IMG/VR virus record: IMGVR_UViG_3300024999_000040
Span: 1-64,000 of that record
Source of the DNA: a virus
Reading direction: 5' to 3' (one strand)
Length of the DNA: 64,000 nt
Both the position numbers and the translations under genes were made by a program. Shown one piece after another: positions 4,831-57,963 of the stretch. The notes under the pieces were generated by a model. The model did not search any database and was not told the origin of the DNA. It saw only the letters and a list, made by a program, of their open reading frames with translations. Every line of letters starts with the position of its first letter. The stretch's first letter is position 1.

Positions 4831-5117
4831 TAAAAACTCAATAAAATTAGCATTTTAATGGAATTTACAAGTCTTGAAAGCCTTGATATAGGCTGATTTC
4901 AATTTTGGTCAAAAACAAAATAAATTATAAAGGAATGAATTAAAATTATATAGGATATGGGAAGCAGACCACTTCCCTACCCTATTCAAAAAAAGGACGT
5001 GAATTAATGGAATACTATAACTTCTGTTTTTCGTGTGGATATTGTTTCCAAAAGATTAAGTTTATGATGTATATTTTAAAAAAATTTATGATGAAGGGAA
5101 TGAGATAAAACGGGTGG

Positions 5118-5321
5118 ATGAATAATTCCACCCTTTATAATTATGGGATGAGTATGACGAATTTATTAATCATTATATTGTTAGTAAGTATTTTGTTAAG
5201 TATGTGGATTGTGTATTTTAAGTTAAGGAAAAAGATGAGAGAGTTTCATGATTTTAATGTGGGAGAACACAGAACGATGCAACAAATGTATTTAATGTCA
5301 AATAAGAAACAAACTAAATAA
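5118..5321 (+). CDS. Small single-TM membrane protein
   Basis: One hydrophobic segment followed by a basic tail. Confidence 0.45.
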   Translation: MNNSTLYNYGMSMTNLLIIILLVSILLSMWIVYFKLRKKMREFHDFNVGEHRTMQQMYLMSNKKQTK

Positions 5322-5347
5322 TAGAGAGGGTGTTAATGAAGCAATGA

Positions 5348-5743
5348 ATGGATAAACAATTTCATAATTTATTGAAAGACAATTTAGATTCGGTGTATGA
5401 AATAAGAGATAAGTATTTTAATGGTTTATCTTTAACTCCATTGTACAATTATGAAAGGAATGAATTAACAGGAGTATATGAAGATGTGGTAAATGAGTTG
5501 GAAGTAAATGTAAATTGTCACATGTACATTTGCTTTGTAAAAAATGACGACAAAATTTATTTGAGGCACTATAATCTTGCTCAAAACAATGGCGGGAAAA
5601 AAAATAATGGTGGGGGTAAAATGAAATTTCATGTTGAAAAACATACCTTCACAAATTGGTATATGACTCTAAAATGGTTGTCAAGTTCACATCTTTATAA
5701 GCCTAGTCAAAAGAAAGATATTTTCGATTTATTGAAAAAGTAG
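5348..5743 (+). CDS. Hypothetical protein
   Basis: 131-aa ORF with upstream GAGG RBS. Confidence 0.55.
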   Translation: MDKQFHNLLKDNLDSVYEIRDKYFNGLSLTPLYNYERNELTGVYEDVVNELEVNVNCHMYICFVKNDDKIYLRHYNLAQNNGGKKNNGGGKMKFHVEKHTFTNWYMTLKWLSSSHLYKPSQKKDIFDLLKK

Positions 5744-5860
5744 AATATAAAATTTTTAAAAGATAGATTGAGCCTCATAAACTCAATCGACAAGAGTAGG
5801 AATCCTTGTACCCTACTCTTCTTTTATTGTTCAAAAAACAAGGAAATATAACATCAAGGA

Positions 5861-7237
5861 GTGGATATAATAATGGGTGGAAAAAGTTCTACATATGAAA
5901 TAATTAAAAATTTTGTGGAAATAGAATCACAAAGTGGGTGTAAATTACTAAGTAAAGAATACGTTTCAAATACTATTTTATATTTCGAATGTAAATGTGA
6001 AAATGAATTTTCTACAACATTTAATAATTTTAAAAATAATAATAAAAGACAATGTAATGATTGTGGAAAAGAAAGTGAGAAAAACAAAAGAAAACAACCA
6101 TATATAGAAGTTAAAAAATATGTTGAAAATTTAGGATATGAATTAATTGATAATGAATATATAAACAACTATACACCTATAACATTAAAAGATGAATATG
6201 GTTATTTTTATTATATAAAATTTAAAGGACTAAAATTGGGCAATATTCCTCATAAATTTAACACTTCAAATCCATATACAATACAGAATATTAAATTATG
6301 GTGCAAATTGAATAATAAACCTTTAGAATTATTAAGTGAAATATATAAAGGAAATAAGAAAAAGCTTTTATGGAAATGTTTAAAAGATGATTGTAAAGAA
6401 ACATTTGATGCAATATTTGTAAATATGGTTTCTACTGGTGAATGTGGTTGTCCTTATTGTGCAGGAGTAAGAGTAGGTTTGTCAAATTGTTTAGCAATTA
6501 AAAGACCAGAATTAATTTTAGAGTGGCATCCTACTAAAAATGGAGATTTGACTCCTTATGATGTTACTTGTGGTAGTCATAAAGATATTTGGTGGATATG
6601 TGAAAAAGGGCATGAATGGTCTTCAAAAATAAAAAATAGAAAAACAACAGATTGTCCTTATTGCTCTGGATTTTATCCTAGTGAAGATTATAATTTGGAA
6701 GTTTGCAATCCTGAATTAATTTTAGAATGGGATTATAGTAAAAATAATAAAAAACCAAAAGAATATTGTCCTGGTACTCAACAATATGCTTGGTGGAAAT
6801 GTCAAAAATGCAATCATGAATGGGAAGCCATAATTAATACTAGAACAAGAAAAACAAGACCATCTGGTTGTCCACAATGTGCAGAATCAAAAGGCGAAAA
6901 AGAAATAAACAATGTATTAACTAGATATAATAATCCATATGATTCAGAACACACCTTTGCTGATTTGATTGGTCTTGGCGGTGGATTATTAAGATTTGAT
7001 GTACCTGTGTTTTGGGATTATAAAAAAACACAATTAAGATTGTTAATAGAATATGATGGTATTCAACATTTTGAATGGGTTAAAGGTATGATGACTGAAA
7101 AACAGTTTGAAATATTACAAATACATGACAATCTTAAAGATGAATATTGCAAGAAAAATGATATAAAATTGTTCCGTATTCCCTATTGGGATTTTGATAA
7201 TATAGAACAAATTCTCAAAAAAGAGTTAAATCTTTGA
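5861..7237 (+). CDS. Zinc-ribbon repeat protein with C-terminal PD-(D/E)xK (Vsr/DUF559-like) nuclease; probable free-standing homing endonuclease
   Basis: Repeated WxC..GHEW...CPYC treble-clef motifs; C-terminal SKGE...LRFD...IEYDGIQH...KDEYC...LFRIPYW. Confidence 0.75.
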   Translation: MDIIMGGKSSTYEIIKNFVEIESQSGCKLLSKEYVSNTILYFECKCENEFSTTFNNFKNNNKRQCNDCGKESEKNKRKQPYIEVKKYVENLGYELIDNEYINNYTPITLKDEYGYFYYIKFKGLKLGNIPHKFNTSNPYTIQNIKLWCKLNNKPLELLSEIYKGNKKKLLWKCLKDDCKETFDAIFVNMVSTGECGCPYCAGVRVGLSNCLAIKRPELILEWHPTKNGDLTPYDVTCGSHKDIWWICEKGHEWSSKIKNRKTTDCPYCSGFYPSEDYNLEVCNPELILEWDYSKNNKKPKEYCPGTQQYAWWKCQKCNHEWEAIINTRTRKTRPSGCPQCAESKGEKEINNVLTRYNNPYDSEHTFADLIGLGGGLLRFDVPVFWDYKKTQLRLLIEYDGIQHFEWVKGMMTEKQFEILQIHDNLKDEYCKKNDIKLFRIPYWDFDNIEQILKKELNL

Positions 7238-7418
7238 TTTATTAAAAAAGTAAATAAAGTAAATTTATTGTAGATTAAGAACACTTCGTTATGAAGTGTT
7301 TTTTGTTGTGCAATAAAGCACAAATAAACAGACTAGGCTTGCAACCGAACACCGTAATCCTTAACGGCTGTCTGTTTATAAAATTATTTAAGGACAATAT
7401 AAAAAGGAGATATTAAAT

Positions 7419-10618: not shown

Positions 10619-13345
10619 ATGCCTTATATTGGTAATAGTTATGGAAGTGGAAGTAGTGGTTCTTCTTCTTCAAATAGTTCAACGACTTATATATCTTCAG
10701 GTACGGCTATAGCTCCAACCATTATATACAATACTGGTTTAGGAACAGTTACTATAGGTGATGGAACATATCGTTTATTTCATACTGCTAATTATACAGG
10801 AGTTATATCTGAACATGTTATAACAGGAAATACATTTGCAATAACTGAACATATTACATCATATATATGTTCAGATTACAATAACGGCACCCCAATAATT
10901 CGTACTATTACAGATTCATCTCAATTCAATTGGTCTAATATATGCCCTATTTATACAGTTACTAGAGATGGAGATAATTTTTCATATGTCAATTGGGACT
11001 CGCCCAGCAATGGTTTGCCGAATAAGATTCATGATCGTTTAATACGTACAGATAGATTTTCAAGAGAATCTGGATTAAGTATTGGAGAATCTGCAACTCC
11101 AATAATACGTACCATAATTGTATCATCGGGTATGATTTGGCAAGGGGTTTATAAAAATTCAATGGATTCAGTTGATTCATCAGTAGATATAGTTAAAATG
11201 TTATATACTGATGGCACTGGAAATTGGATAGATAGTTTTATAACTCAATATAATAACACACAATATGATACAGGAACAGGATTAGCTACTCTTACAGATG
11301 GTAATTATGCAGTAAATTGGATATTTAGAATGATAGGTAATCAAAAAGAAATTGTTGTATTTTTGGGTGATGGAGATTTTGATTTAAATACAGCAAAAGC
11401 ATCTCAGTTACCTAATAATATACCTGCTTTATTTGCTATTAATGGAATGCTTATAGGTCGTATTATTGTTTTGAAAAGTGCTGATGTCGCAATTCAAATA
11501 GACAGTGCATTTACAACAAAATTTGCTGCAAGTACAGTGACATCACATAGTGGTTTGACTAGTATTATTGGTGGGGATGCTCTCACAGGGAATTATTATC
11601 ATTCAGATCAAGAAATAAATAAAGATAGTGATGTTGAATTTGCTTCAGTAACAACAAATGATTATAGAAGTTTAGACAGTAATTTAAACTTAAATGCTTA
11701 TGTTGGTTATGATATTATAGCTCATGATAATATAATTCCTTCTTTAAATAATTCTAAAACATTGGGTGAGTCAAGTTTAGTGTATTCTGAAACATTTACA
11801 AGAAAAGTTACTAGTGATGATGATTTATCATTAGATGCTTTAACTGGTAAAAATATTATAATTAAGAAAAGCGTTTTACCAGATTTGACAAATACTCATA
11901 GTATAGGTTCTGCTACAAAAGTTATTAAAGAAGTTTTTACAGAAAAAGTTACTTCAGATGCAGATTTAATATTAGGTTCAGCTATTGGCTCTGATATTAT
12001 TTTAAGAAATGGAAACTCTGATGCTGGAATAATTACAGAAGCAGGTAATTGGGGAATTGGAAATATTAACCCCACTAAAAAACTTGAAATAACTGGTGAT
12101 GTATTAATTGATGGTGATTTGAATGTTGATGGCACAGTTACACAAATTGATGTTGTTAATCTTGATGTTACTAATAAAAACATAAACTTAGCTGTAACTG
12201 ATACTCCTACAGATGCTTTAGCAAATGGTGGGGGAATAGTTCTAAAAGGTACTACAGACAAAACAATACTATGGGATAATTCTAATGTTGAATGGGATAT
12301 TTCTGATGGATTAGATGTTGATGGTATTATTACTGCAAATGGAACTACTAGTGATGGTAGTACAAATATATTTATTGGTAAAGATTCTCTTGGAACAGAT
12401 GTGTTTAAAGTAGATACAGATGGTAGAGTTACAGCATCAGTCATTGCACCTACGGTAGATAGTACTACAGGTATTCAGATAACTAAAGCTGATAAAACAA
12501 CGCCAATCATTAATGTTGATACTACTAATGAAAGAGTAGAGATCAAAGGTGTTTCTGCTTATGGAATAGCACAGTTTATTGGAAATGGAGCAGATTCGGA
12601 ATCTTCAATTGGTTTTAAGGATTCTACTGATACAAATGATGAAGCTTGGGTTATTGGTAAGAATGTAGGTTTGAGTAATACAACAGGCAGATTTGGTATA
12701 TTTTATTTAAATGGTGAAAAATTAGTTATTACTACTGATGGTAATATTGGAGTGGGAACTGGAGAGCCTGATGATAGTGCGATACTTGATTTAACGAGTG
12801 TAAGTAAGGGATTTCTTTGCCCTAGAGTAACGAAAGCTCAACGGCTTGCTATGACAGCAGTTGAAGGATTGGAAGTTTATCAGACAGACAATGGCCCTGG
12901 TAAGTATTGCTACACAAACAGTATTTGGTGTCAAACTAGTGGATTAGAATATTTAGTTGGATATAAAACAGCTACGACAAATGTATCGTCTGCCATAGAT
13001 ATAGCTTTTGTAGTTGGCACTACAAATATGAGTTCAGTGACCTCGCCAAATATTCCATTAAAGAATGGGAAAGTATATTCTATTAATGCGTATGTCCAAA
13101 TTAATTCAACTGGATTATCTGGAGCAAGATTTTCTTTTGTAGACTCATCAAATGTAGCAATTTCTGCATTATATGATGGAATATGCTATACTGCATCAAG
13201 TGGAGATATTGGATCGCAACCAACAGCTGGTGGTATTTACAAACCAACCTCCGACCAAAATATAAAATTAAGAGCCGTAAGTGCATCTGGTACACCCATA
13301 TTGCAATATGATACGTTTAGAATTCAAGTTATACAAATATCTTAG
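10619..13345 (+). CDS. Long tail-fibre-like protein
   Basis: GNWGIGNINP/GNIGVGTGEP, KGFLCPRVT..QR and ANGGGIVLKG fibre motifs; 908 aa. Confidence 0.65.
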   Translation: MPYIGNSYGSGSSGSSSSNSSTTYISSGTAIAPTIIYNTGLGTVTIGDGTYRLFHTANYTGVISEHVITGNTFAITEHITSYICSDYNNGTPIIRTITDSSQFNWSNICPIYTVTRDGDNFSYVNWDSPSNGLPNKIHDRLIRTDRFSRESGLSIGESATPIIRTIIVSSGMIWQGVYKNSMDSVDSSVDIVKMLYTDGTGNWIDSFITQYNNTQYDTGTGLATLTDGNYAVNWIFRMIGNQKEIVVFLGDGDFDLNTAKASQLPNNIPALFAINGMLIGRIIVLKSADVAIQIDSAFTTKFAASTVTSHSGLTSIIGGDALTGNYYHSDQEINKDSDVEFASVTTNDYRSLDSNLNLNAYVGYDIIAHDNIIPSLNNSKTLGESSLVYSETFTRKVTSDDDLSLDALTGKNIIIKKSVLPDLTNTHSIGSATKVIKEVFTEKVTSDADLILGSAIGSDIILRNGNSDAGIITEAGNWGIGNINPTKKLEITGDVLIDGDLNVDGTVTQIDVVNLDVTNKNINLAVTDTPTDALANGGGIVLKGTTDKTILWDNSNVEWDISDGLDVDGIITANGTTSDGSTNIFIGKDSLGTDVFKVDTDGRVTASVIAPTVDSTTGIQITKADKTTPIINVDTTNERVEIKGVSAYGIAQFIGNGADSESSIGFKDSTDTNDEAWVIGKNVGLSNTTGRFGIFYLNGEKLVITTDGNIGVGTGEPDDSAILDLTSVSKGFLCPRVTKAQRLAMTAVEGLEVYQTDNGPGKYCYTNSIWCQTSGLEYLVGYKTATTNVSSAIDIAFVVGTTNMSSVTSPNIPLKNGKVYSINAYVQINSTGLSGARFSFVDSSNVAISALYDGICYTASSGDIGSQPTAGGIYKPTSDQNIKLRAVSASGTPILQYDTFRIQVIQIS

Positions 13346-13636
13346 TAAAAACCCAATGAATCATTCGATTTATTTACTTTAGCATTACCCAATGAAATGA
13401 CAATTTTAATTGGAAATCATGTTAATATATAGTATGTGAATAAACAATTATACACAATGGGTAGTAGGTATGTTCCTCTACCCTATTCCTTTATTTTTAT
13501 GTCGATAAAAATATCTGTCATCACATTTTTTCCTACATAAAAATGTAGTTCATTCACATTTTTCATATCTAAATTATGCAATTCTAATAACAATTGCATA
13601 TTTCTATACAATTTCTTTTCAAAAAATAAAAAATTT

Positions 13637-16227: not shown

Positions 16228-16553
16228 CTACCGCACAATAGGTAAAAATAATGCTAAAATAAAAGTTCAAAATCTACACATACTAACATAACGGATACTT
16301 TATCTGTTTCTATATAAGAGTGGTTGAGAAGACTTTACATCTTCCCTATCACTCTTTTATTTTATATTATCTTTTTCCTTTCTAGTTAATTCTCAAACAC
16401 CCAATAAAATTCGTGTTTTAATGGAAGTAAATTTTCAAGTCTGCAAATGTAGATATATCAAGGGTTTCAAATTTCAATAAAATTCTAAAATATTATAGAA
16501 AGAAGTGATTTCTCATATCTCAAATATTAAAACTAGTCATAGATAATGACATC

Positions 16554-16955: not shown

Positions 16956-16972
16956 ACTAAGTAAATATAATA

Positions 16973-17566: not shown

Positions 17567-17568
17567 TT

Positions 17569-18164: not shown

Positions 18165-18165
18165 T

Positions 18166-18913: not shown

Positions 18914-19043
18914 CACGATAAAATCAAAATTTCATAGGGAATTTTTAGTGAGTCTTGAAAGCCTTGTAAATCAAGGCTTTGTTTTTTATAAAAAATGCAG
19001 TTATTAACAATAAAAAAACAAAATAAAGGAGGAATTTTTAAAA

Positions 19044-22076: not shown

Positions 22077-22274
22077 TAACTACCACGCAATAGGTAATAA
22101 GGTTACGGTAAAGAGACTTAAAATATAGTCTCTTTCCTTCTCTATTTCATTTAACACTATAAAATTTAGGTTTTATTTGGTATGCTATATGTAGTGGTAT
22201 AAAGTTCAGTTTATATACTATATCTTGTATATGGAATTCATTAATATTTTAACTAAATAAATATAATATTTCTA

Positions 22275-26008: not shown

Positions 26009-26035
26009 CTGATAGAGATAGTTTTATAAGCCAAT

Positions 26036-26500
26036 GAATTCGGTCTTTTAACGTGTTTTACTTGATGGCGGGTATGCCAACCGAAATTATCCATTAAAAC
26101 CACAACGACAACATCATAGCACCCCAAAATAAGCTTGGTTGTACGACAGTGGGAGGATAAAACACACAAATAGTTTGTTGATGTCAAATTTGTGTGAAGA
26201 GAAATCAACCATGATACACGTATAGTTGCCTGTCGTATGTGTAAAGTGAATCCTGCTTGGAATAAGCAACAGGAGAAAATCTAAACATCTATAAGGTCGG
26301 AAATGGTTCCCGACACACTTTTGTAATCGAATTCAAAATAATGGAGTGGCTTCGTTCGTTTTGAGTTTGTGAGAAAGTATCTGAGATGCAGGATATGCCG
26401 CCCTGCTGTAGATGTTTGGAAATCTATATAGAGCTTTAGGCTCAATCTTATTTTTATTGTAGAAGGAAACATCCGCATGTCTATACGATTTGCGGATATT
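26036..26500 (+). ncRNA. Candidate large, highly structured ncRNA (strand inferred)
   Basis: GC-elevated stretch without a credible gene and with many long-range complementary segments. Confidence 0.5.
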
Positions 26501-26537: not shown

Positions 26538-27608
26538 GTGGAACGAATGGCAAAAGTAGTAAAAATAAAATATTTTACAGATGAAAAGAAAGCATTAATA
26601 AATCCAGATAATAAGATTCTTTATGGTAAATATTTAAAATCAAATATTCTTAAAAATAAAGAGGTTAAGGATACAACCTATGCTATATATGAAAATTATG
26701 TAACTCAATTCTTAGTTTATTTAGCTGAAGAATGGGATAATGTTAATTTATATCATGAAGATTTTTTTGAAAATGCCATAGAAATTATAGAAGGATTTAT
26801 GTCGTTTTGTCAGGACACTTTGCAAAATAATAAAAAGGTAATTAATACTAAAGTATCAGCAGTATCTTCTTTTTATAATTGGAGTGTTAAAAGAAAAGAG
26901 ATTACATATCATCCTTTTGATGGTAAAATCGAAAGAATGAAAGGTGCTGGAGATGAAAGAATAACTAAAGATTATTTTCTTACTGAAGAACAAATTTTGA
27001 CAGTTGCTAAAGAATTAATTACAAATCCAAAATTTGATATTCAAGATAGGATATTATTTCATTTAGCAATAGATTCAGCTAATCGTATTGGAGCAATTTC
27101 AAAACTTACTTTATCAGCATTGGATATAGATAATATGCTATTCGAAAATATACGTGAAAAACGGGGGAATCGTGTAGAAGTTGTCTTTGAGGAGTTATGT
27201 AAATCCTACATTGAAGAATGGCTTATTATGAGAAAAGATATGGATAATCTTACGATTGATTCTTTATTTATGACTAGATATCATAATGAATATAGGATTA
27301 TGACAAGGAGTACTATATCTGACAGAGCTAGAAAAATAGGTACTTTATTAGGAATTGAAGATTTCCATATGCATTGTTTTCGTAAGACTTCTATAAATAA
27401 TGTAATGCTTTTAAGTGGTGATATTGAAATGGCAAAAGAACACGCTGGGCATAAATCGACTGACACAACTTTGATCTATATCAAAAAGAAATCGAAAACG
27501 GAGATCAGAGAAAAATTAAAAGAATTAAAAGAAAAGAAAAAGGCTGAAGCAGATAAAGTTAAACAACCAGAATTAATAACTCCAATAATTAATGAAGAGC
27601 AGGAATAG
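26538..27608 (+). CDS. Tyrosine recombinase (XerC/D-like)
   Basis: Catalytic set intact: SANRIG (R), EKRG (K), HCFR (HxxR), AGH...TTLIY (H, Y). Confidence 0.85.
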   Translation: MERMAKVVKIKYFTDEKKALINPDNKILYGKYLKSNILKNKEVKDTTYAIYENYVTQFLVYLAEEWDNVNLYHEDFFENAIEIIEGFMSFCQDTLQNNKKVINTKVSAVSSFYNWSVKRKEITYHPFDGKIERMKGAGDERITKDYFLTEEQILTVAKELITNPKFDIQDRILFHLAIDSANRIGAISKLTLSALDIDNMLFENIREKRGNRVEVVFEELCKSYIEEWLIMRKDMDNLTIDSLFMTRYHNEYRIMTRSTISDRARKIGTLLGIEDFHMHCFRKTSINNVMLLSGDIEMAKEHAGHKSTDTTLIYIKKKSKTEIREKLKELKEKKKAEADKVKQPELITPIINEEQE

Positions 27609-28225: not shown

Positions 28226-28434
28226 GTATAATAATTAAAAACAAGAACAATAAGGCAATAAAAACATTGATTCATTGGGTTAATTTTTAGAGAGTCATTA
28301 ATTGGCTCTCTTTTTAGTTTAGGAAATTACTTAAAAAGTTTATATAGAAAAGAAATCACAAGAGAGTATTGGATATTATCCTATCTCTTTTTTTATTGTT
28401 TAAAAATAAATTATGAAAGGATGATGATATAACG

Positions 28435-31400: not shown

Positions 31401-34140
31401 TGATAATATTGTCAAGATTAAAGAATTAAATAAAGTTAAATTACAAGAATTTTTAGATGCTAATAAAATAATTGCTGATGAAAATAAAAGAATATTGGCA
31501 GAGCAAAAGTTTGGCACGGCTAGTTTTGATGTTGGTACGTATGGTGCTTCTGTAGGAAAATTTATTACTAATGGTGATAATTTAACTCTTAAAGAATATA
31601 TAGATTCTTTAAAAAAATTAAGAAATGAGTTAAGTACTGGAGCATTACCTGATTATACAATTGATTCAATTAAAGGTGTTCAAAATTTAAACACAGAAAT
31701 TGACAAACAGGAAAAGAAATATAATGAACTAAATGGAATTATAGTTCAAGTTGATACAGCACAAAAACAATTAACTGGTTCAACTGAAAATACAGGTGAT
31801 GTAGTAGAAGATGCAGGAAATAAAATTCAAAAGTACACTCAAGACTTAGACGAACTAAATAAAGTTACCGATTCAGCACAATCCACCTTCAAAGATTTAT
31901 CCTCTATGTATGAACAGGTTAACGAAGGTCAAGAACTCAACAATGATCAAATGCTTGATTTAATTCAAAATTATCCTGTCGTTCTTAATTATATGGATTC
32001 TGAAGGTAATCTCCTAGTATCTCAAACAGATTTATTAAAGATTCTTTTTGAAGCCAAAAAAGCAGACCTTAAATTAACGCTTCAAACTGAGAAAGACAAA
32101 GCAGATGCAGTTATTAGAAGTTTAGAAGTTCAAAGAGATGCATATTTAGGGTTTTATAGTGCTATAGGAGCTACTTTAGGATATTCTGAAGAACAAGCAG
32201 CAACCATGTTTGGTTTTGATAAAGAATCGTATGATAAAGCAGTTGTGGCAGCTAAAGATGCACAGGCTAAAATTAATGCTTTAGATAAGTTGACTTTTAA
32301 GGATTATAGTGGTAAAAAAACTAGTTCTAGCGGTAAAGAAATAGATGCTAATCTCTCCCTTATCGAAAAGGACAGATATTCCCAACTAGAAGCCTCTCTA
32401 AATAAAACGGATGTTTTATTGGAAAAAAATAAAGCACTTCAAGCACTTCATGAAGATGATATTTCTTTAATGAAGGAGGAGCAACAACTTCTTAAACAGA
32501 AGCAAGATCAATTGCATCTCATAAATGAAGAACGCCGTAAAGAACGTGATGAACTTCAAAAATCTATGTCTTCTCAGGGGTTTAGTTTTAGTGGTACTGG
32601 GGACTCTACCTCTGTTGCAAATTACACAAATGTAATTAATAAACTTACTGATGATGTGAACAAACACAGAACCGATAAAGATAAAACTTATTACAATACT
32701 CTAAAACAACGTCTTGAAGATGCACAGAATAATTTTAAAAGATTTAATGAACTTCAGATTAATGAAATTCCTAAAGCATCTATTGAATGGTGGAATTTGC
32801 AAAAAGCTATAGGAGATGTTGATGCTCAGATTTTAGAGACAACTGAAAATCTTGCAGAAGAACGTCTTCAAAACTTAGCTGATGTTGAAAAACAACTTGT
32901 AGAAATTATCAAGCAAGGTGTTCAAGATAAGATTGACGTTTTAGAAAAAGAACATGATAAAGAAATGGAATTGCTTGAAGAACGTCATGATGCTCGTATT
33001 GAATCATATGAAGATGATTTAGATGAATTTGAGGATTACACTAATGAGAAATTAGGACTTCTTGAAGATCAATATGATGAAGAAGATTTTCTTAAAGAAC
33101 TTTCAAAGAAACGTAAAGAAGCTAATGAGATTCAGCAGAAAATAAATGAATTATCTCTTGATGATAGTCTTGAAGCTCGTACTAAAGTTGCTGAATTAGT
33201 AGAAGAATTAGCAGATAAAGAAACAGAAATTACTAAATTCAAAACTGATAGAGAACGTACATTAAGAAAAGATGGCTTATCTGATCAATTATCTGATTAT
33301 CAAAAATATATTCAAGAGTTGAAAGATAAAGAGAATGACAGATACGAAACTAAAAAAGATATTCTTGAAGATGAATATGAAGAAGATAAAACTCGTTTAA
33401 ACAAACAATTAGAAAATGAATCTTTATATGCTGAAGCCAGAAAATTATTAATGAATAGTACTTTGGAAGAAATTGCTGAAAAATTTGATTTGTTTTCAGA
33501 TAAATTTGGTGAAGGATTATCTGTTTTAGGAGATAAAATTCAAAACGAATTTATTGAAAAACTTAAAGATGCTTTAGCTTTAATTGAAGAAATGGGTGGA
33601 TTTGATATTGAAACTGGTACTTCTGGAAGTTCTTCAATTATAGATAAAATGAAACAAAATTCTGCTGCTTGGTTTGATGCTTCTGCTTCAGAAAAAGAAC
33701 GTCTTGCTAATGAAAATCTTGAATTGGGTACATCTCTAGGTTGGGTTCGTAAAGATGATGGGCATTGGTATAAACCAGATGGTACTAGAGCATATGCCAG
33801 TGGAACATTAAGTGCTAAAGCAGGATTAGCCAAAGTTAATGAACAAGGTACAGAACTTAGAGTTTTAAATTCTGGTGATGGTATTGTAAATGCTGGTTTG
33901 ACTAAGAATCTTATTGATTTTGCTAAAATTGCTCCTGATTTCTTGAATAATTTTAAGTTTCTTACTCCAAAATTACCTAATATATCAGGTGGTAATGGAA
34001 TGACAATTGATGCTTCTATTACAGTTGTTGGTAGTGTGGATAAGTCGTTTATGTCTCAATTGGAAAAATCTCAAAATAATCAACTCGATAAAATAATAAA
34101 GAGTGTAAGTAGGACTACTGTGGGTAGAGGGAGTTTTTAA
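28435..34140 (+). CDS. Tail tape-measure protein, two exons (28435-29730 and 30706-34140; about 1576 aa spliced)
   Basis: TP901-type tape-measure core; splicing joins ...TTMAG|TFQRNRFITLM... in frame; C-terminal YASGT motif. Confidence 0.85.
29731..30705 (+). mobile_element. Group I intron in the tape-measure gene
   Basis: Exon ends in U and intron ends in G; P3 GTGAAC/GTTCAC (29771/30556); P4 ATATCGGTGAAA with GCCGAGAT; P7 GACTG/CAGTC (30548/30586). Confidence 0.85.
29860..30528 (+). CDS. Intron-encoded LAGLIDADG homing endonuclease
   Basis: ILGGLLGDSS and LAIWWMDDG motifs (LAGLIDADG_2 type). Confidence 0.85.
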   Translation: MKNTSLLSNQLEIILGGLLGDSSIRKNTNQINFGHSEKQFEYLSWKHNELKSISTNITKVLVDNKYIRYNFETLKKVSEEFKFISLLIFDKFGKKRVNRKWLNQLTPLSLAIWWMDDGCLSIHKGNRYGKLCTHCFSYEEHEIMKQYFKVKWDIDIQIKLEKNEYYFCRLNVENLKKLISIIYPYIILIPNMIYKIDLNYINNVNLGDFEVIYNIIKNSKLT

Positions 34141-44328: not shown

Positions 44329-44428
44329 GACCGCACCTAACTAGTGGGGTCTTTTTGCTGTGTGGAAATTTCTCAGTAAATTAAGTAAATATAATAATAC
44401 AATTTTATTAGGAAAAGAGGTAGCAATA

Positions 44429-46315: not shown

Positions 46316-46468
46316 TAACCCCATAAAAGTGACATTTTATTGGATAAAAATTGAAATTTAAGAAGATGAACCTTGCAAATTTAAGTGAATTTTAATGATA
46401 TTTATTAATTTACTTAATATTTTGCAAGGTTTTTATTATAGAAAATCATAAAAAGGAGGCATAAAAAT

Positions 46469-49489: not shown

Positions 49490-49492
49490 ATT

Positions 49493-50523: not shown

Positions 50524-50730
50524 CAACACATTAAAACATAGATTTTATTGGGAAATGGAAACTCAATAAATCAGTACTTTTATTGGGATGTTTTAAAGAC
50601 AAAGGGATGTAACTAATAGGGATGAAAACCACATCCCTATTAGTTTTATCGTTGCTGAAGCAACGAATATAATTATAACTAAATATTGATTAATTTTAAC
50701 TAAAGTGATATAATAATATAAGAAAGAGAG

Positions 50731-50982: not shown

Positions 50983-51014
50983 TGGTTTTTTAGAGATGAT
51001 GGAGATGACGAAAT

Positions 51015-51617
51015 ATGAACGATAAAGCACATCGTATCTTATCAAGTGTAATGATTATTGATGCAGATACAAATAAAGAACAAGAAGTTAGAAATTTGGT
51101 AAGTGGTTTTCTAGTAGATAATATAATTTCAAATACAAAATTCGAAAATGTAAATACAAGTTTATTTGTAAAAGATACATCATTAAAACACTGGAAACCT
51201 AAGGCACATTTCACAAAAATATTTAATAACGAAATAGAATACGCAAAAGAACTTTATGGTTTGACAAGAACCGAAGTTCTTTTTTTATATTCACTTTCAC
51301 CTTATTTATTATGGGAAAATAATTTGTTGGTTGATGAAGAAGATGACCCACTTAATCAAAAAAGACTTGCTGAATTATTAGGAATAGAAAGAAAAACTGT
51401 TCAACGAAATATGAAAACCTTAGAAGAAAAGAAATGTATTTATAGCATCCCATATGAAAGGGATGTTTTTTATTTGGTTAATCCTAGTTTGATGTACGCA
51501 GGACAACAAATAAATATGATTATTCCTTCCCTATTTCGCGCATCAGGTTATGAACCTAGCGAAAGCATTAGAAGTAATAGAGATAAAGCAACTAAAAACA
51601 ATCAAATCAAGGCTTAG
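51015..51617 (+). CDS. RepL-like winged-helix replication/maintenance protein
   Basis: FTKIF, HTH LNQKRLAELLGIERKTV, YLVNPSLMYAG. Confidence 0.55.
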   Translation: MNDKAHRILSSVMIIDADTNKEQEVRNLVSGFLVDNIISNTKFENVNTSLFVKDTSLKHWKPKAHFTKIFNNEIEYAKELYGLTRTEVLFLYSLSPYLLWENNLLVDEEDDPLNQKRLAELLGIERKTVQRNMKTLEEKKCIYSIPYERDVFYLVNPSLMYAGQQINMIIPSLFRASGYEPSESIRSNRDKATKNNQIKA

Positions 51618-51730
51618 AAGGCGATTTTATGTACCTTTAATGTCTCATGAGGTGACGAGAAATCAAGGGTTTTAAACGCCATATGGGACATTTCACATTA
51701 TTAGAGAAAATGAAAATGGAGGAATTTTAA

Positions 51731-52450
51731 ATGAATACAAATATTATGGGAATTTACAAGATTACTAATATTACAAATAATAAAATATACATAGGTAGTA
51801 GTGTTGATATTCATGGCAGATGGTTACAGCATCAAAATCAACTAAACAAGAATAAACATTGTAATAATTATTTGCAAAATTCTTGGAAAAAGCATGGAAA
51901 GGATAATTTTAAATTTGAAGTTGTTGAACTTGTTTCAGATGAGGATTTATTATTTTCAGCAGAACAGAAATGGATTAACAAAACAAAATGTTACGATAGT
52001 AATTATGGCTATAACATTTCAATAGAAGCAAGCAGACCTAATTGTGGGGATGGAACAAATCGATTAAATGCTAATTTTGTATTTAGGAATAAAATTACTG
52101 ATATTGTTGATATGAAATTAGATAAAAATGAAAAACTTGTTTATTATGTTCTTAGAGATTTTGCACAACATCCCTCAAACTGTATAATGCTAAATAATAT
52201 TGTACCTTCTTTTAAGGAATTAGAACCATTAGTGTCTTTAACTGAAAGAACAATTAGGGATGCTTTGAAAACACTTGAACAGAAGAATTTATTAAAGTTG
52301 GTACAGTCTGGTCACAAGAAGGCTATATACATAAATCCAGAATATTATTCTACAGGTAAAGAACTTAACATAGATACATTAGACCTTTTTAATTTGGAGT
52401 TATATACTTATGAAGATGTTGAAAATTATAAGAAGAAAAACACTAATTGA
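51731..52450 (+). CDS. GIY-YIG endonuclease fused to a RepL-like wHTH domain
   Basis: GIYKITN...YIGSS...R...E...YN; C-terminal ERTIRDALKTL...YINPEY. Confidence 0.75.
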   Translation: MNTNIMGIYKITNITNNKIYIGSSVDIHGRWLQHQNQLNKNKHCNNYLQNSWKKHGKDNFKFEVVELVSDEDLLFSAEQKWINKTKCYDSNYGYNISIEASRPNCGDGTNRLNANFVFRNKITDIVDMKLDKNEKLVYYVLRDFAQHPSNCIMLNNIVPSFKELEPLVSLTERTIRDALKTLEQKNLLKLVQSGHKKAIYINPEYYSTGKELNIDTLDLFNLELYTYEDVENYKKKNTN

Positions 52451-52668
52451 ACAAATATAATAAAAGGAGGAAAAATCCAATGGCTCCAGCAAAACCAAGT
52501 AAAACAAATCCAGATGTAAAGCAAAAAAGTCAGAAAAGCATCCTAGTTACTTCAGATAAGTGTATTGCGTGTTTAGAGCAATGTGAAAAAGGTTTAGCGT
52601 ATATTCAGACAGTCAAGAAAAAGTTTGGTAGTGGCTGTGTTTGTTATAAACTAAAGGAAAATAAGTAA
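52447..52668 (+). CDS. Small Cys-containing hypothetical protein
   Basis: CxxC..C motif; likely start at ATG 52480 after AGGAGG. Confidence 0.45.
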   Translation: MNKYNKRRKNPMAPAKPSKTNPDVKQKSQKSILVTSDKCIACLEQCEKGLAYIQTVKKKFGSGCVCYKLKENK

Positions 52669-52695
52669 ACAAATATAATAAAAGGAAGTGAAATC

Positions 52696-52992
52696 ATGTT
52701 TAAGAAAATAATTGAATCTTTCAAAAAAACAACAACCTCTAAAAAACTCACAGCATTGATAGTTGCGTTTTGGATTATGGTAATTATAGCAGATATAATT
52801 ATCTATTTAATTACAGGCAATACAATTAATGTAGTGGTCGATTATGTAAATACTGCATTCCTAGTTATTTTAGGTTCATATTTTGGTAAGAGTTTGATTG
52901 AAAATGTAGCAAAAGGTATAGAGAACAATATTACATCCAAGGCTACAGATATACCTACAGAATCAACAGAAAATCAAGAGTCTCAAGGTTGA
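52696..52992 (+). CDS. Holin-like two-TM protein
   Basis: SKKL..., two TMs, YFGKS..EN motif; upstream of the lysin. Confidence 0.55.
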   Translation: MFKKIIESFKKTTTSKKLTALIVAFWIMVIIADIIIYLITGNTINVVVDYVNTAFLVILGSYFGKSLIENVAKGIENNITSKATDIPTESTENQESQG

Positions 52993-53006
52993 AGGAGATG
53001 ATTTAA

Positions 53007-53633
53007 TTGAAATATTACAAAGTATTTATTACACATGTTATAGAACTTGACCCATTAGAAATTCGTGCATCATTAGTTTCTGCTACAGGAAAATCAATTA
53101 TTAAGAAATTTAAAAATTTCATCAATTGTAATTTTTTCTCAGGTAGTAAAACAGTTGGTTGGTTAATATCTGAAGGCAAAGTTTTATCAGAAAGACATGA
53201 ATATAAAATATGGAAAGGGAATCCAAAAGGCAGTTTGATAGTCTACAAAGATGGTTCAGTTTTCGTAGGTTGGAAATATGATTCAGAAATTGTAGCTGAA
53301 CTTGATAAGATATGGTTCTGTTGTCAAGGGTTTAACTTATTCCCTACTGGTATGGATGTAATTTCTGGAATAAAGAAAGAGGGATTTGACCCTAATCAGG
53401 TAGGTTATACAACGAACAGAATTGCTATTGGCTATAATAAGGTTACTAATAAAATAGTAATTACTGTAAGACCTTCTAGTAATGCTCAAAGGGCTGTTTC
53501 TACTATGAAAAACTTAGGTTGTGATGGTAATGCCATATGCCTTGACAGTGGAGGAAGCGTCAATTTAGGATTATTAGGGAAGTTGATATTTTCAACGTCT
53601 AGGAGATTAACAAACATCTTATGGTGGAATTAA
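53007..53633 (+). CDS. Phosphodiester glycosidase (NAGPA/DUF2233-like) protein
   Basis: INCNFF, RIAIGY, AICLDSGGS motifs. Confidence 0.7.
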   Translation: MKYYKVFITHVIELDPLEIRASLVSATGKSIIKKFKNFINCNFFSGSKTVGWLISEGKVLSERHEYKIWKGNPKGSLIVYKDGSVFVGWKYDSEIVAELDKIWFCCQGFNLFPTGMDVISGIKKEGFDPNQVGYTTNRIAIGYNKVTNKIVITVRPSSNAQRAVSTMKNLGCDGNAICLDSGGSVNLGLLGKLIFSTSRRLTNILWWN

Positions 53634-54580
53634 AGGAAGTGAAAAATATGGTAAAAATAAATGAACAACTAATTCCTGTAGGTCATCCAAATAGAGCAGG
53701 AACAAAAACAATTCCTATAGCTGTGATTGTACATTATACAGCTAATGATGCACCTTCCGCAACAGATACAGCAAACGCTAATTATTTTGCAAGAAAGTAT
53801 ATTGTCAAAAATGGAGTTATATATGAATCAAATGGTATTGATAAATTTAGATATGGTTCTACTCAATGGATTATAGATCAAGATAGTGCGACATTAGTAA
53901 TCCCTCAAAATGAAGTGTCATGGGGTTGCGGAGATAGGCAGTTACCTTATAACAATGGATATAAGGGGCAAACAAAAATAGCATATGATATATTTAATCA
54001 TAAACAGAATTATTTAACTATTAATTATGAAATTTGTAATAATGATACCATTAAAAATTCTAATGCTGATTGGCAAATGGCTTGTAACAATGCTATAGAG
54101 ATTATTGCACAAGATATGATTAAATATAATATTCCTATAGATAGAATTTATAAGCACCAAGATTTATCAGGTAAGATATGTCCAAAACCATTTATTGATA
54201 ATCCTAAATCATGGGAAGATTTCAAAAACAGAATCATAAATAAAATAAATAATAAGCAAGAAGGAAGTGAATCAGAAGTGATAATGGATAAAGTTTATAC
54301 TTGTAAAAGAATAGTAACTACTACATTAAATGTTAGAACTTCACCTAGTACAGATGGAAAAATTCTTGGACAATTTAAGGCCGATGAAGTCATTGTATGT
54401 ACAGGTGAAGTTGGTAATGGTTGGATAAGAGTTGTCTATCAAGATCAGGATGGATTTTGCTCAGAAAAGTATACAAATCCATTTATAGAACTAGATTATA
54501 AATCTAAGTGTGAACAATTAAGTAAAGATAATAATGCACTCACAAGTAAATTGAATGCCATTAAAAATATTTTAGATTAG
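53621..54580 (+). CDS. Endolysin: N-acetylmuramoyl-L-alanine amidase (Amidase_2) plus SH3b (likely start ATG 53648)
   Basis: IVHYTAN, YEIC, H.D.SGKICP; LNVRTSPST...GWIRV SH3b. Confidence 0.85.
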   Translation: MVELKEVKNMVKINEQLIPVGHPNRAGTKTIPIAVIVHYTANDAPSATDTANANYFARKYIVKNGVIYESNGIDKFRYGSTQWIIDQDSATLVIPQNEVSWGCGDRQLPYNNGYKGQTKIAYDIFNHKQNYLTINYEICNNDTIKNSNADWQMACNNAIEIIAQDMIKYNIPIDRIYKHQDLSGKICPKPFIDNPKSWEDFKNRIINKINNKQEGSESEVIMDKVYTCKRIVTTTLNVRTSPSTDGKILGQFKADEVIVCTGEVGNGWIRVVYQDQDGFCSEKYTNPFIELDYKSKCEQLSKDNNALTSKLNAIKNILD

Positions 54581-54591
54581 GATGTGATTGT

Positions 54592-54807
54592 ATGTTCAAT
54601 ATAACACATCCAAAGTACTCAAATATCACTTGGAGAAGCGAAGAAAACCAGAAAAGGATAAATACAATTATGTTAATTATGAACTACATCAATCGTGATG
54701 TAAACGATTTAGAATTCATGAAGGATAAAAGTGATTCTGAAAAGGCTGTACTTCAAGAATATATAACAATTCTCAGAAATTTACTTATCGAAGAAATGTC
54801 AGTATAA
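54592..54807 (+). CDS. Hypothetical protein
   Basis: 71-aa ORF after the lysin. Confidence 0.45.
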   Translation: MFNITHPKYSNITWRSEENQKRINTIMLIMNYINRDVNDLEFMKDKSDSEKAVLQEYITILRNLLIEEMSV

Positions 54808-54939
54808 AAACCAAATAAAATAGATTTTTTATTTGTTTTGGTTTTAGTATAGGTTTTGGTATGTACAAACATTAAGTCCATATTCTTGTATGAACTATAA
54901 ATAAAAAATAAGGTTAAATTAAGAAAGGTTAGGTGTATC

Positions 54940-55317
54940 ATGGACGTATTATTACAGTTAGGAATTTATTTGGCAATTGCAATTGGTATAGCAGGAATCG
55001 CTATAGTTGGAATTTGGTTAAGACGAAGATTCAATATCAAGGACTCTGAGATAGAATTAGCAAAATTAATACTTCAGGTAGTTGATTTAATTGTTGCTAA
55101 AGGGAACGTAAAATATAAGGGAGAGATTTCAGTTGTTATCAATTACGTAATCGAAGGAATAAAATTTGTCAATGAATTTGAGCAGGTAGATTCTATTCAT
55201 CAACAGAAAGAATTAGTTGCTGAAAAGGCACTTAGTATATGTGAAGAAAATGGAATAACTCCAGATCAGGCAGTAGTAGAATTAATAGACCAGGTGATAG
55301 AATATTTTATTAAATAA
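54940..55317 (+). CDS. Holin-like protein (single N-terminal TM)
   Basis: TM followed by a helical domain (VNEFEQ...KELV); last gene before a bidirectional terminator. Confidence 0.5.
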   Translation: MDVLLQLGIYLAIAIGIAGIAIVGIWLRRRFNIKDSEIELAKLILQVVDLIVAKGNVKYKGEISVVINYVIEGIKFVNEFEQVDSIHQQKELVAEKALSICEENGITPDQAVVELIDQVIEYFIK

Positions 55318-55326
55318 ACAAATATA

Positions 55327-55371
55327 ATAGGGATACAAGAATATTAAATTATTCTGTATCCCTATTTTTTT
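55327..55371. terminator. Bidirectional terminator between lysis module and integrase
   Basis: ATAGGGATACA...TGTATCCCTAT hairpin followed by a T run. Confidence 0.7.
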
Positions 55372-55389
55372 ACGTTTTTATTTTACCAA

Positions 55390-56595
55390 TTACATATCAT
55401 CCAATAAATCAATAGCCTTATTTTTTTGTTCTTGAATTAAATGTATATATGTTTCATAAGTTATTCTCACATCTGCATGACCTAACAATTCACTTACGGT
55501 TTTTACATCTATTCCTTTTTTAAAAAGCATGGAAGCAAAAGTATGTCTTAATACATGAAGTCCTTTATGCTTAATCCCTGCTCTCTCTAAAATAGCATCA
55601 AAAGTATTTTGTAAATTCCTTGGTCTTATTGGTGTATTATTGTTTGTAAAAAATATATAGCTATCTGGTGTATAATGATACATCTTATTAAGTTCTATAA
55701 GAGCATTTAAAGCCTTTTTACTTAACTGTATTGATCTATTTCCTTTTGGGGTTTTTGTGGTATCTTGGTGAACCATAATATTTTTGGGAGATGATTCATC
55801 TTTTCGTTTTCTATTTTTGGTTATAATGATACTGTTCTTCACATTTATTCTTTTATTTTCGATATCAACATCTAACCATCTTAATGCTAATGCTTCAGAC
55901 ATTCTTACACCGATATAGAGCATTAATATAAATCCATATCCTTTTTTAAATATGAATTCGTTATTATTATATTTTGTCAAACATACTTCTTCAAATTTTT
56001 CTTTTTCATTATCAGTAAATATTTCAATCTCTTTCTTTTTAAATTTAGAAGAAGAAGGTTTGGTTACTGTATTAACAGGATTAAATATTACCTTTCTATT
56101 GTCAGCAGCATATTTCATACAAGCATTGATGGCATCATAAGCTTTTTTTATTGATGAGTAAGACTTTCCATCTTCCACCATTTTATTGATTAATTCTTCC
56201 TGTATAACAGGTGCTGTAAGTTTATTTAATTCATAATGTCCAATATTTGGTATTATATGATTATTAATGGTTGATTCTAATCTATCATATGATAATGGTT
56301 TAAGATCATTTGTTTTTGTTAATTTTAGCCAACTTAAAATATAATCTTTTAAAGTATCGTTTGCTAAGTTATCTAATCCTTGAGATTGTAATAAATGATA
56401 TTCTTTTAATTTTGCCACAACTTCTTTTCGTTCTTTTCCATAAAAAGTTTTAATGATAGGTGTTCCTGATTCAGAAGTACCAGTTTGAATTTTTGCACAC
56501 CAACGATCATCTTTTCTTTGGAATATACTTCCTTCTCCATTTCCTCTCCTAGTATTTTTCTTTTCTTTTATTGTTTTTTCCTTCATTATTTTCAC
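55390..56595 (-). CDS. int: Phage integrase (tyrosine recombinase)
   Basis: RRGNGEGSI arm-binding start; GVRMSE, TKT, HVLRH, LLGH...TYETY. Confidence 0.9.
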   Translation of the reverse strand: MKIMKEKTIKEKKNTRRGNGEGSIFQRKDDRWCAKIQTGTSESGTPIIKTFYGKERKEVVAKLKEYHLLQSQGLDNLANDTLKDYILSWLKLTKTNDLKPLSYDRLESTINNHIIPNIGHYELNKLTAPVIQEELINKMVEDGKSYSSIKKAYDAINACMKYAADNRKVIFNPVNTVTKPSSSKFKKKEIEIFTDNEKEKFEEVCLTKYNNNEFIFKKGYGFILMLYIGVRMSEALALRWLDVDIENKRINVKNSIIITKNRKRKDESSPKNIMVHQDTTKTPKGNRSIQLSKKALNALIELNKMYHYTPDSYIFFTNNNTPIRPRNLQNTFDAILERAGIKHKGLHVLRHTFASMLFKKGIDVKTVSELLGHADVRITYETYIHLIQEQKNKAIDLLDDM

Positions 56596-56638
56596 CTCAT
56601 GAAAATTATAACATGAGGTATATTTTTAATCAAGGTTT

Positions 56639-56930
56639 ATACACCAATTTTGACACCAATACCGTTATAAAACTATATAAAAACTTGTAAATGGTTGTAA
56701 AGTAAAAGGGAGTTTAGAGTATATATTTAAGCAATAAAAAACCCACAAACCGCTTATATCAAGCAACTTGTGGGTCGTTTATTTTGGAGGCGCCACCCAG
56801 ATTCGGACTGGGGATAAAGGTTTTGCAGACCTCATATCATAAGTCTTGTAAGTATTGATACATAATGGTTATAAGGTTTATGATGAAATACTTGACACTA
56901 ATTGTACACTAATTCTTATTTTTGACACTA
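56639..56930 (-). other. attP: 49-bp core equal to the 3' half of tRNA-Cys(GCA) (56785-56833) flanked by arm-type repeats
   Basis: Minus strand reads GAGGTCTGCAAAACCTTTATCCCCAGTCCGAATCTGGGTGGCGCCTCCA with no 5' half; ACAC(C/T)AAT repeats on both sides. Confidence 0.8.
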
Positions 56931-57134
56931 TTTATTACACCAAAACTTTTCTGCTTGTTTATTAAACCATTCATCAACCTTGTTCTCTATTATATAGTAT
57001 TTACCACCAATTTTTAAAGCAGGAAAATCTTTGCGTTTAGCCAAAGCACGAACAGCATGTATTCCTATAATTTCTTTTTTATCTTTATTTAGATATTCAT
57101 ATAACTTCTGTGGGGTTATTAATATATTTTCCAT
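56928..57134 (-). CDS. Excisionase-like HTH protein
   Basis: IGIHAVRALAKRKDFPALKIGGKYYI...DEW; adjacent to attP. Confidence 0.7.
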   Translation of the reverse strand: MENILITPQKLYEYLNKDKKEIIGIHAVRALAKRKDFPALKIGGKYYIIENKVDEWFNKQAEKFWCNK

Positions 57135-57181
57135 GGTTTTGTCCTTATCTATGTATAATATATTTGTATCGTAGATATCAT

Positions 57182-57433
57182 TTAAAAATTAAATGCTTTT
57201 GCAAAAGCGTCAAGATCATCAATAATAAACAAGTCACTACTCCAATTCCCAGGCCAAACAGCATATAATGTTGTATCTTTTTTTACTGCTCGTAAATAAG
57301 ATTCAAAAACTCCTTGTTTATCAGACTTATTTTTATGATGAATATGATTTGTATTACCCTGTTTATCGACCTCAAAGTAACAAACTGTTTTCATATTATA
57401 TGGAAAATTATCTGATTCCTTTGCACTTCTCAT
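57182..57433 (-). CDS. Hypothetical protein
   Basis: RBS GGAG; YAVWPGNWSSDLF motif. Confidence 0.55.
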   Translation of the reverse strand: MRSAKESDNFPYNMKTVCYFEVDKQGNTNHIHHKNKSDKQGVFESYLRAVKKDTTLYAVWPGNWSSDLFIIDDLDAFAKAFNF

Positions 57434-57487
57434 TTTATTTTATCTCCTTTATTATATTTACTCGCTTTACCCCATAAAATTGGCTTT

Positions 57488-57898
57488 TTATTGTCTTATA
57501 TCTCTCGGTTTTTTAATTTCAATTTTCATTGATTCATCTTGATTCTTTCTTACTGTCTGCCATGAATTGGATTGATCATTTTTATAATTCCAAGGAACAT
57601 AGAAAGTAAAATTAGAGTTGTCTTCATAACAAATAGCTACAGCAGTAATATCTCCACCTGTAAATATTCTTTCGGAAAATGGCTTGCTCCATTCCCAATA
57701 TGCTTTTATATCCTTTAAATTCTTAACAGATAATAAAAAACTATAAGCTCTAAGAGATGTAGAACAATCACCATAATCACCTTGAATATAGTATTTTTTT
57801 TTAAATCCATCAACATTCATTCTGTCTATACATTTAGCAGGTATTATATAATACTCAGAATTTTCTAATGTAACCTCAATACATTTAAATTTTTTCAT
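57488..57898 (-). CDS. Hypothetical protein (single-gene cassette)
   Basis: RBS AAGGAG; bracketed by palindromic sites at 57474 and 57940. Confidence 0.6.
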   Translation of the reverse strand: MKKFKCIEVTLENSEYYIIPAKCIDRMNVDGFKKKYYIQGDYGDCSTSLRAYSFLLSVKNLKDIKAYWEWSKPFSERIFTGGDITAVAICYEDNSNFTFYVPWNYKNDQSNSWQTVRKNQDESMKIEIKKPRDIRQ

Positions 57899-57963
57899 AT
57901 TTTCTCCTTTAATTATTATATTTATTTTATTTACACACTATAAAAATTGATTTTTATTGGGTT

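Follow-up and report, generated by a model that had tools for sequence, protein, structure and literature searches.

We have identified a dispersed palindrome with an 18-bp core, ATAAAA-N6-TTTTAT, in the phage genome held as IMG/VR virus record IMGVR_UViG_3300024999_000040, and find that the repeat is real, longer and more numerous than first described. The window, meaning the whole stretch of DNA analysed, is the first 64 kb of this 148.7-kb contig (148,716 bp, 29% G+C, 84% coding, CheckV completeness 76%), and positions refer to it unless marked as contig positions. Judged from its sequence and distribution, the palindrome is a hallmark shared across the whole lineage of large, SPbeta-like temperate phages of Firmicutes, and mosaic breakpoints in the SPbeta clade match it at base-pair resolution. 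We give about an even chance to the reading that the motif is a junction where gene cassettes or modules are exchanged between related phages, and we infer by analogy that such exchange also takes place in this phage. A preliminary description of the window had proposed a phage-wide cassette system with attC-like sites; the sites do delimit modules and SPbeta-clade breakpoints do coincide with them, whereas the attC-like folding finds no support. A limited full-text search of the literature found no description of the motif, which is not proof of novelty.

Mosaic breakpoints in the SPbeta clade

The phage has no close relatives among the genomes examined, and 20 kb of the window gave zero Megablast matches to isolated phages. 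Because of this, and because the SPbeta clade is well sampled, the ends of BLAST homology blocks were compared with motif positions in SPbeta, phi3T, Goe13 and SPbetaL4, which here serve as a proxy. Over whole genomes, 82 of 504 block ends fell on the motif, compared with 4.5 under a uniform spread (an excess of about 18-fold) and 14.2 expected when block ends are confined to non-coding DNA. Within the 17-kb early region, 41 of 123 block ends lay no more than 8 nt from a motif, where non-coding placement alone would give 12.4. Motif-bearing gaps held a breakpoint in 58 of 96 cases (60%) and motif-free gaps in 75 of 291 (26%; odds ratio 4.4, P 1.4e-9), and a breakpoint was present within 6 nt of 71 of the 155 motif sites. 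We find this effect size, together with its base-level precision, hard to explain by intergenic location alone.

The precision is clearest at 25 motif-anchored pairwise junctions representing about 10 loci. Homology ended 0-1 nt past the 18-bp core in 18 of these and within 5 nt in 24. The variable spacer had been inherited with the right block in 14 junctions and with the left block in 8, and it differed in 3; since both inheritances are seen, crossovers took place in either arm. One spacer, agactg, occurs with two left and two right flanks in every one of their four possible pairings. The exchanged material includes gad1 (annotated as anti-Gabija) of SPbetaL4, which lies within a motif-bounded segment replacing yoqY of SPbeta.

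Sequence, number and placement of the palindrome

Aligned sites give the consensus (A)AC-CCAATRAAA-N6-TTTYATTGG-G, an element of 24-32 bp. Its 9-6-9 geometry with invariant 6-bp spacing agrees with the Xer/dif-type core, in which inverted arms enclose a 6-8 bp spacer, a layout that the preliminary description recognized as that of tyrosine-recombinase cores. The exact core is present 6 times in the window (0.12 expected), and 16 copies are found at up to one mismatch (5.7 expected), which makes the 18-bp core alone a noisy search pattern. A position weight matrix (PWM) of the long consensus, applied to the whole contig with a cut-off of at least 19 bits, called 36 sites, of which 35 are intergenic; third-order Markov controls gave 0-1, and about 0.1 would be expected. 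An origin in AT-rich background and an equal frequency inside genes, either of which had been named as grounds for dismissing the repeat, are both at odds with these counts.

All 13 positions listed at the outset are motif-like, although the exact core is found at only five (22159, 46323, 54815, 57474 and 57940); the other eight carry 1-3 mismatches within the 12 core bases. The claim that every copy is intergenic or overlaps a stop codon does not strictly hold, as a sixth exact copy, unlisted, begins at 32402 inside an open reading frame (ORF) at 30703-34140. This tape-measure-like ORF resembles SPbeta YomI over 32803-33573. A good site at 26031, also absent from that list, was recovered by the PWM; it lies 69 nt past the stop of an IscB gene and upstream of a skipping-rope RNA and the recombinase gene at 26538.

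Plus-strand genes, which extend to about 55.3 kb, make up the structural modules, and minus-strand genes from 55.4 kb to the contig end are early, replication and lysogeny genes. In the plus-strand block, 6 of 11 intergenic sites begin 1-7 nt past the upstream stop, the next start is 100-600 nt beyond the site, and separate canonical terminators stand beside some sites. In the minus-strand block the space between two genes is taken up by the site: the stop codon ahead of it is 1-6 nt off, or its TAA, TGA or TAG falls within the arm, a Shine-Dalgarno sequence follows a few bases past the site, and the next gene mostly starts 13-28 nt beyond. The view that the sites delimit translation units and modules is supported by this placement. 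The closeness to stop codons noted earlier is likewise borne out, the bracketing of modules by site pairs agrees by coordinates, and the gene that abuts the site at 57937 is correctly identified as cas3. A different gene, the 888-amino-acid ORF at 2164-4830 whose stop precedes the first palindrome by 7 nt, has no Pfam or PHROG match and is not cas3.

A terminator scan placed an intrinsic terminator (18958-18980) after the site at 18915. The site at 22156 is preceded by a terminator at 22110-22135 and followed by a promoter at 22275-22303 and a tRNA-Met gene. Promoter and terminator scans nonetheless gave no constant relation to the motif, and no -35/-10 consensus was found in it or at a fixed distance from it. 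Palindromes stand in tandem twice (13353-13412 and 50528-50586), the members of each pair being 11-12 nt apart, and these pairs may represent doubled sites or cassette slots that are empty.

Occurrence in related phages

When over-represented dyads were ranked de novo, genome by genome, ATAAAA-N6-TTTTAT came first in this phage (10 versus 0.6), in a Chengkuizengella prophage (31 versus 0.6), in Geobacillus virus E3 (17 versus 0.8), in Clostridium phage c-st (13 versus 2.2) and in SPbeta (8 versus 0.6). The exact core occurs 13-18 times per genome in the four SPbeta-clade genomes, against 1 for a reversed-pattern control, and in SPbeta the palindrome sits in the gaps between stop codon and ribosome-binding site of the yoq-yor early genes. 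In Chengkuizengella marina, 15 of the 16 sites in the entire genome fall on two contigs of the prophage, and an MrpR-family protein is encoded on one of these. Nine of this phage's 218 proteins have homologues in the prophage, namely Pol III alpha, SSB, an MrpR-like protein, five tail proteins and one unknown protein. AgrB-like and LytTR-domain genes (L170:2473-3674; C. marina contig C8, 82.5-83.7 kb), about 1 kb upstream of the MrpR-like gene, may provide a peptide-signalling input that replaces arbitrium in this prophage.

A scan of IMG/VR with the perfect 24-mer yielded five fragmentary contigs, G001-G005, which have just a few short, low-identity DNA stretches in common with this phage. 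Their sites, counted at up to 3 mismatches, number 9-12 in each of G001-G003 and 3-4 in each of G004 and G005, and are placed as they are here; G003 has 41% G+C. A scan of 596 Gb of genomes for the perfect palindrome returned about 100 single matches scattered over unrelated taxa, consistent with chance, the Chengkuizengella prophage being the exception. A Spiroplasma genome carries a different repeat with a conserved loop.

Relatives of the MrpR-like protein of this phage were also sought. An exact-peptide search of IMG/VR found none, and a profile search found two distant loci, G006 and G007, both lacking the motif. In G007 (IMGVR_UViG_3300044556_000077), 13 early genes at 114.8-129.2 kb have one and the same sequence, AAAATAGGGGGTA, 4-8 nt ahead of the start. 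This extended ribosome-binding site is the top-ranking repeat of G007 and resembles a start-associated sequence. Five short contigs (L013-L017) encoding MrpR-like proteins of 51-63% identity hold one weak site and are too short to inform.

Proposed cassette exchange and candidate recombinases

The dyad CCAATRAAA-N6-TTTYATTGG fills the gap between stop codon and ribosome-binding site or marks the 3' end of a structural module. In the exchange we envisage, crossover would occur inside either 6-9 bp arm, so that either partner, left or right, could contribute the variable 6-bp spacer. Catalysis might be carried out by a dimer of a phage protein with the tyrosine-recombinase fold acting on the inverted arms. 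Such a reaction could tolerate spacer heterology if one strand pair is exchanged and replication follows, which would give both spacer inheritances. The observed pattern is what a reaction of tyrosine-recombinase type at the borders of the spacer would produce, and it agrees equally well with recombination that simply uses the sole bases conserved between unrelated genes, as at the PeSL elements of T4-type phages discussed below.

A dedicated, phage-encoded form of this exchange, which we consider rather doubtful, would have orphan YomM/YopP-like proteins (here those encoded at 26538 and/or contig 137880) bind the dyads as dimers and swap promoterless cassettes. Swaps would take place between co-infecting or resident phages and involve gad1-type anti-defence genes and tail-fibre modules among other cassettes, making the system a viral counterpart of integrons with simple duplex sites. 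Orphan integrase-fold proteins do occupy parallel positions in the two phages: YomM (in the tail module), YopP and YopR in SPbeta, and the products of 26538, contig 137880 and contig 134312 here. The gene at 26538-27608, of the tyrosine-recombinase family, lies in the structural module, like yomM. Phage c-st and G004 both carry homologues, and directly upstream of the gene, at 26286-26414, is a skipping-rope RNA motif (Rfam RF02924, 63.6 bits). We regard the recombinase encoded at 26538 and the others only as candidates for acting on the sites.

The arrangement recalls Xer/dif sites and the pdif modules reported from Acinetobacter plasmids in its inverted arms, 6-bp spacer, variable spacers and many sites bracketing modules. 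However, the arms here are 9 bp rather than 11 and symmetric rather than XerC/XerD-specific, and they appear not to match the dif consensus.

Several observations weigh against exchange at the palindrome or limit what the breakpoints can say. About half of the SPbeta-clade motif sites have no breakpoint and most breakpoints lie elsewhere, and since the counts come from pairwise comparisons among four related genomes, the events counted are not independent of one another. BLAST blocks run through any conserved motif, which places crossovers in the arms and makes a dedicated reaction inseparable from passive use of the motif. The spacer sequences differ among all window sites, and classical tyrosine recombination does not tolerate spacer heterology; the candidate recombinases are, in addition, poorly conserved across motif-bearing phages. 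Internal duplications and IscB elements of this genome end 75-766 nt away from the closest site. Comparison of contigs from four DNA runs of one groundwater study with positions 44001-64000 gave no convincing excised or joined forms, as the contig joints, among them one from 45957 to 57970, were short-sided (21-30 nt) and flagged unreliable. Lastly, G001-G005 have no DNA in common pairwise at 1e-15, and the breakpoint evidence comes entirely from the SPbeta clade.

A possible regulatory role for the palindrome

Alternatively, the motif may be an operator or roadblock for a phage DNA-binding dimer, set before translation units and acting as a recombination hotspot only passively, as the sole conserved patch between genes that are otherwise unrelated. 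We hold this to be a tentative possibility. A symmetric dyad whose half-sites vary independently points to binding of duplex DNA by a dimer. Consensus sigma-A promoters are visible at contig 71.5, 131.1 and 138.8 kb; there the motif is found 27-36 nt downstream of the -10 element, with the Shine-Dalgarno sequence following it, which is a roadblock position. A strong site also stands 14 nt before the first gene of an sro-like operon, like the SPBRE element before yopM in SPbeta. The phage encodes an MrpR/SroF/YopR-like protein (contig 134312-135265; PF22822 (MrpR_N_CB) 2.9e-16, PF22823, PDB 9rd5 5.7e-11 and 8a0a 1.5e-9), and among the proteins in common with the Chengkuizengella prophage, none but the MrpR-like one is an obvious sequence-specific DNA binder.

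The sro-like operon itself (contig 134312-138800) comprises genes for an intact Xer-like recombinase, a 95-amino-acid ORF, a long MazF/PemK toxin-like protein (223 amino acids), a DndB/YopQ-like protein and the MrpR/SroF-like protein, with another palindrome inside it at contig 137477.

Evidence from the homologous repressors stands against an MrpR operator. MrpR binds dispersed SPBRE sites in SPbeta (PMC10516654), which we re-derived from the published target promoters, mapped by chromatin affinity purification sequencing (ChAP-seq), as AAATACAAAAAATATGTA. This sequence is unlike the palindrome and coexists with it in SPbeta, and on these grounds the palindrome is probably not the MrpR operator. 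SroF of phi3T binds a 26-bp, non-palindromic A-tract box as a monomer (bioRxiv 10.1101/2025.11.27.690993). SPBRE does share with the palindrome its richness in A-tracts, a length of about 18-26 bp, a dispersed intergenic distribution and a position often directly before the Shine-Dalgarno sequence, and both a homologous repressor and an sro-like operon are present here. Yet SPBRE sites number about 10, compared with 36-49 palindromes in this phage and 33-43 per SPbeta-clade genome, and the SroF box of phi3T is asymmetric, in contrast to the symmetric dyad.

Against any immunity repressor, the core is near-identical although the MrpR-like proteins are 20-29% identical, which would be unusual. 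Late-region sites follow stops, adjoin terminators and lie far from the next start. The repressor operator raised as an alternative in the preliminary description is therefore weakened by the mapped SPBRE, even with an MrpR/SroF-like repressor present, and survives only as a possible primary function, that of an as yet putative binder. Cluster A mycobacteriophages offer a parallel in their stoperators, reportedly described by Brown and colleagues in 1997, with about 25-35 repressor sites in short intergenic gaps genome-wide. These are 13-bp, asymmetric and oriented with transcription, and their binder is known, unlike the symmetric dyad with its still putative binder. A promoter for the YonO RNA polymerase was also considered and rejected: no YonO homologue was found in the 149 kb, and the one start used by YonO lies upstream of yonK (PMC5467207).

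A precedent in which regulatory motifs mediate shuffling is the PeSL of T4-type phages, which combines a sigma-70 early promoter with a terminator stem-loop (Arbiol et al. 2010, PMC2839356; Comeau et al. 2014, PMC4122927). Like PeSL, the palindrome is a short intergenic motif in tens of copies that flanks small accessory ORFs, and in the SPbeta clade it likewise lies at the boundaries of insertions, deletions and replacements. However, PeSL uses homologous recombination over a longer motif, whereas here 12-18 conserved bases surround a variable spacer; the palindrome has no promoter consensus and no selected stem-loop, and its lineage is that of SPbeta-like siphoviruses of Firmicutes.

Disfavoured readings: RNA hairpins, integrons and chance

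An RNA hairpin in polycistronic mRNA, serving as a processing site, stabilizer, leaky terminator, or device for translational coupling or uncoupling, is improbable. The site does lie between stop codon and ribosome-binding site on the transcribed strand, the arms in this phage could pair over 9-10 bp, and intercistronic RNase III hairpins occur in phages SP82 and T7. However, G.U and A.C mismatches on the transcribed strand are equally frequent (19 and 20), and the arms do not covary, since Watson-Crick pairs (233) are fewer than when 3' arms are shuffled among sites (246.9 +/- 4.9). The R/Y position varies independently between the two arms, ATGAAA being paired with TTTCAT once against about 2.5 expected. 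In SPbeta and in Geobacillus virus E3, a phage of a thermophile, only 6-7 symmetric A-T pairs are present, too few for a stable fold. Rfam gave zero matches at the motif sites, and the stable G+C stem, T-run and compensatory pairing of an intrinsic terminator are missing from the motif. These data fit a motif made of two half-sites read on duplex DNA, not folded RNA or single-stranded DNA.

The same absence of covariation leaves the folded hairpin that the initial attC analogy would imply without support. We consider an integron-type system, with attC-like single-stranded hairpins, an IntI-like integrase and an attI platform, very unlikely, even though several tyrosine recombinases are encoded. 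As in integrons, the units are promoterless single genes, each with a site at its 3' end beside or overlapping the stop codon. In contrast to attC, which is long (57-141 bp), conserved in structure and folded as a single strand, the motif is 24 bp, conserved in sequence, and free of pairing selection or any conserved pattern of extrahelical bases. There is no evident attI/Pc platform, the sites are dispersed through both strand blocks of the 149 kb instead of forming one array, and none of the recombinases at 26538, 55390 and contig 137880 adjoins a site array.

Chance in an AT-rich genome, or generic curved DNA without specific function, might account for about 6 matches per 64 kb at one mismatch of the core in a 29% G+C genome, and for the single perfect copies in many unrelated genomes, but is refuted by the PWM counts, the intergenic bias, the fixed 6-bp spacer, the retention of the motif in the 41% G+C relative and its confinement to the prophage within a 4.4-Mb host genome, leaving it a negligible probability.

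Features of the window and contig

The same phage is carried by a 191.7-kb groundwater scaffold. Palindromes and other features are listed in the table. A phage-encoded, type I-B-like CRISPR-Cas locus occupies 57964-64000 and runs past the window end. Three genes encode IscB (RRXRR + HNH), at 24320-25961, at 44429-45899 and at contig 131916-133383, and both window copies are preceded by HEARO/omega-RNA (Rfam 118-140 bits). The second and third copies are 83% identical across 1.46 kb, which suggests an IS200/IS605-type element that was recently active. A second repeat, made of long AT palindromes resembling GGTATA(C/G)(C/T)ATATAT, adjoins three junction sites. Unusual cargo at contig 113559-114671, 124981-126465 and 128165-130093 consists of a protein with WGR and PARP-catalytic domains, a NAMPT/NAPRTase homologue and a gene interrupted by a LAGLIDADG-domain intein.

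Table. Palindromes, recombinase genes, CRISPR-Cas genes and second repeats, with positions in the window unless marked as contig positions
Feature	Position	Strand	Context	Evidence
Junction palindrome	4838..4861		7 nt past stop of ORF 2164-4830	PWM 26.5 bits
Degenerate copy, first of tandem pair	13353..13376		7 nt past stop of 10619-13345	PWM 16.7 bits; 3 core mismatches
Junction palindrome, second of tandem pair	13389..13412			PWM 25.7 bits
Junction palindrome	16401..16424		between modules 13665-16227 and 16554-18913	PWM 27.9 bits
Junction palindrome	18915..18938		1 nt past stop of 18677-18913	PWM 25.4 bits
Junction palindrome, exact core	22156..22179			exact-core search, PWM
Junction palindrome, previously missed	26031..26054			PWM 23.5 bits
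Junction palindrome	28255..28278		ahead of tail module 28435-46315, then terminator-like hairpin	PWM 23.3 bits
Exact core copy, sole intragenic site	32399..32422		inside tape-measure-like ORF 30703-34140 (1145 aa)
Junction palindrome, exact core	46320..46343		4 nt past stop of 45929-46315, ahead of fibre module 46469-50523	PWM 31.4 bits
Junction palindrome, first of tandem pair	50528..50551		4 nt past stop of 50092-50523	PWM 25.5 bits
Junction palindrome, second of tandem pair	50563..50586		then terminator-like hairpin	PWM 25.4 bits
Junction palindrome, exact core	54812..54835		4 nt past stop of 54592-54807	PWM 21.4 bits
Junction palindrome, exact core	57471..57494		arm holds stop codon of minus-strand gene 57488-57898	PWM 31.5 bits
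Junction palindrome, exact core	57937..57960		3 nt past cas3 stop, 38 nt upstream of gene 57488-57898	PWM 29.1 bits
Candidate recombinase	26538..27608	+		Pfam Phage_integrase 1.2e-15; catalytic R, HxxR, H, Y present (XerA/XerD alignment)
Classical integrase	55390-56586
Xer-like gene, candidate recombinase	contig 137880-138800		YopP-like position
Cas3	57964-59994	minus	CRISPR-Cas locus
CRISPR array, 14 repeats	60009-60918			repeat about 30 nt, period 66 nt
Cas7/Cst2	61108-62172		CRISPR-Cas locus
365-aa gene, possibly Cas8b	62219-63316		CRISPR-Cas locus
Cas6	63317 onward		CRISPR-Cas locus
Second AT-palindrome repeat	22180-22240
Second AT-palindrome repeat	contig 98931-98990
Second AT-palindrome repeat	contig 124810-124880

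Implications

If the palindrome is a true exchange junction, it would account for the shuffling of accessory, anti-defence and receptor-binding genes among very large temperate phages of Firmicutes, in units that are ready for translation. A simple sequence rule for delimiting cassettes in metagenomic phages would follow as well. Additionally, it would give a function to the integrase-like genes yomM and yopP, which have none, and SPbeta and phi3T in Bacillus subtilis would offer a tractable model for this exchange.

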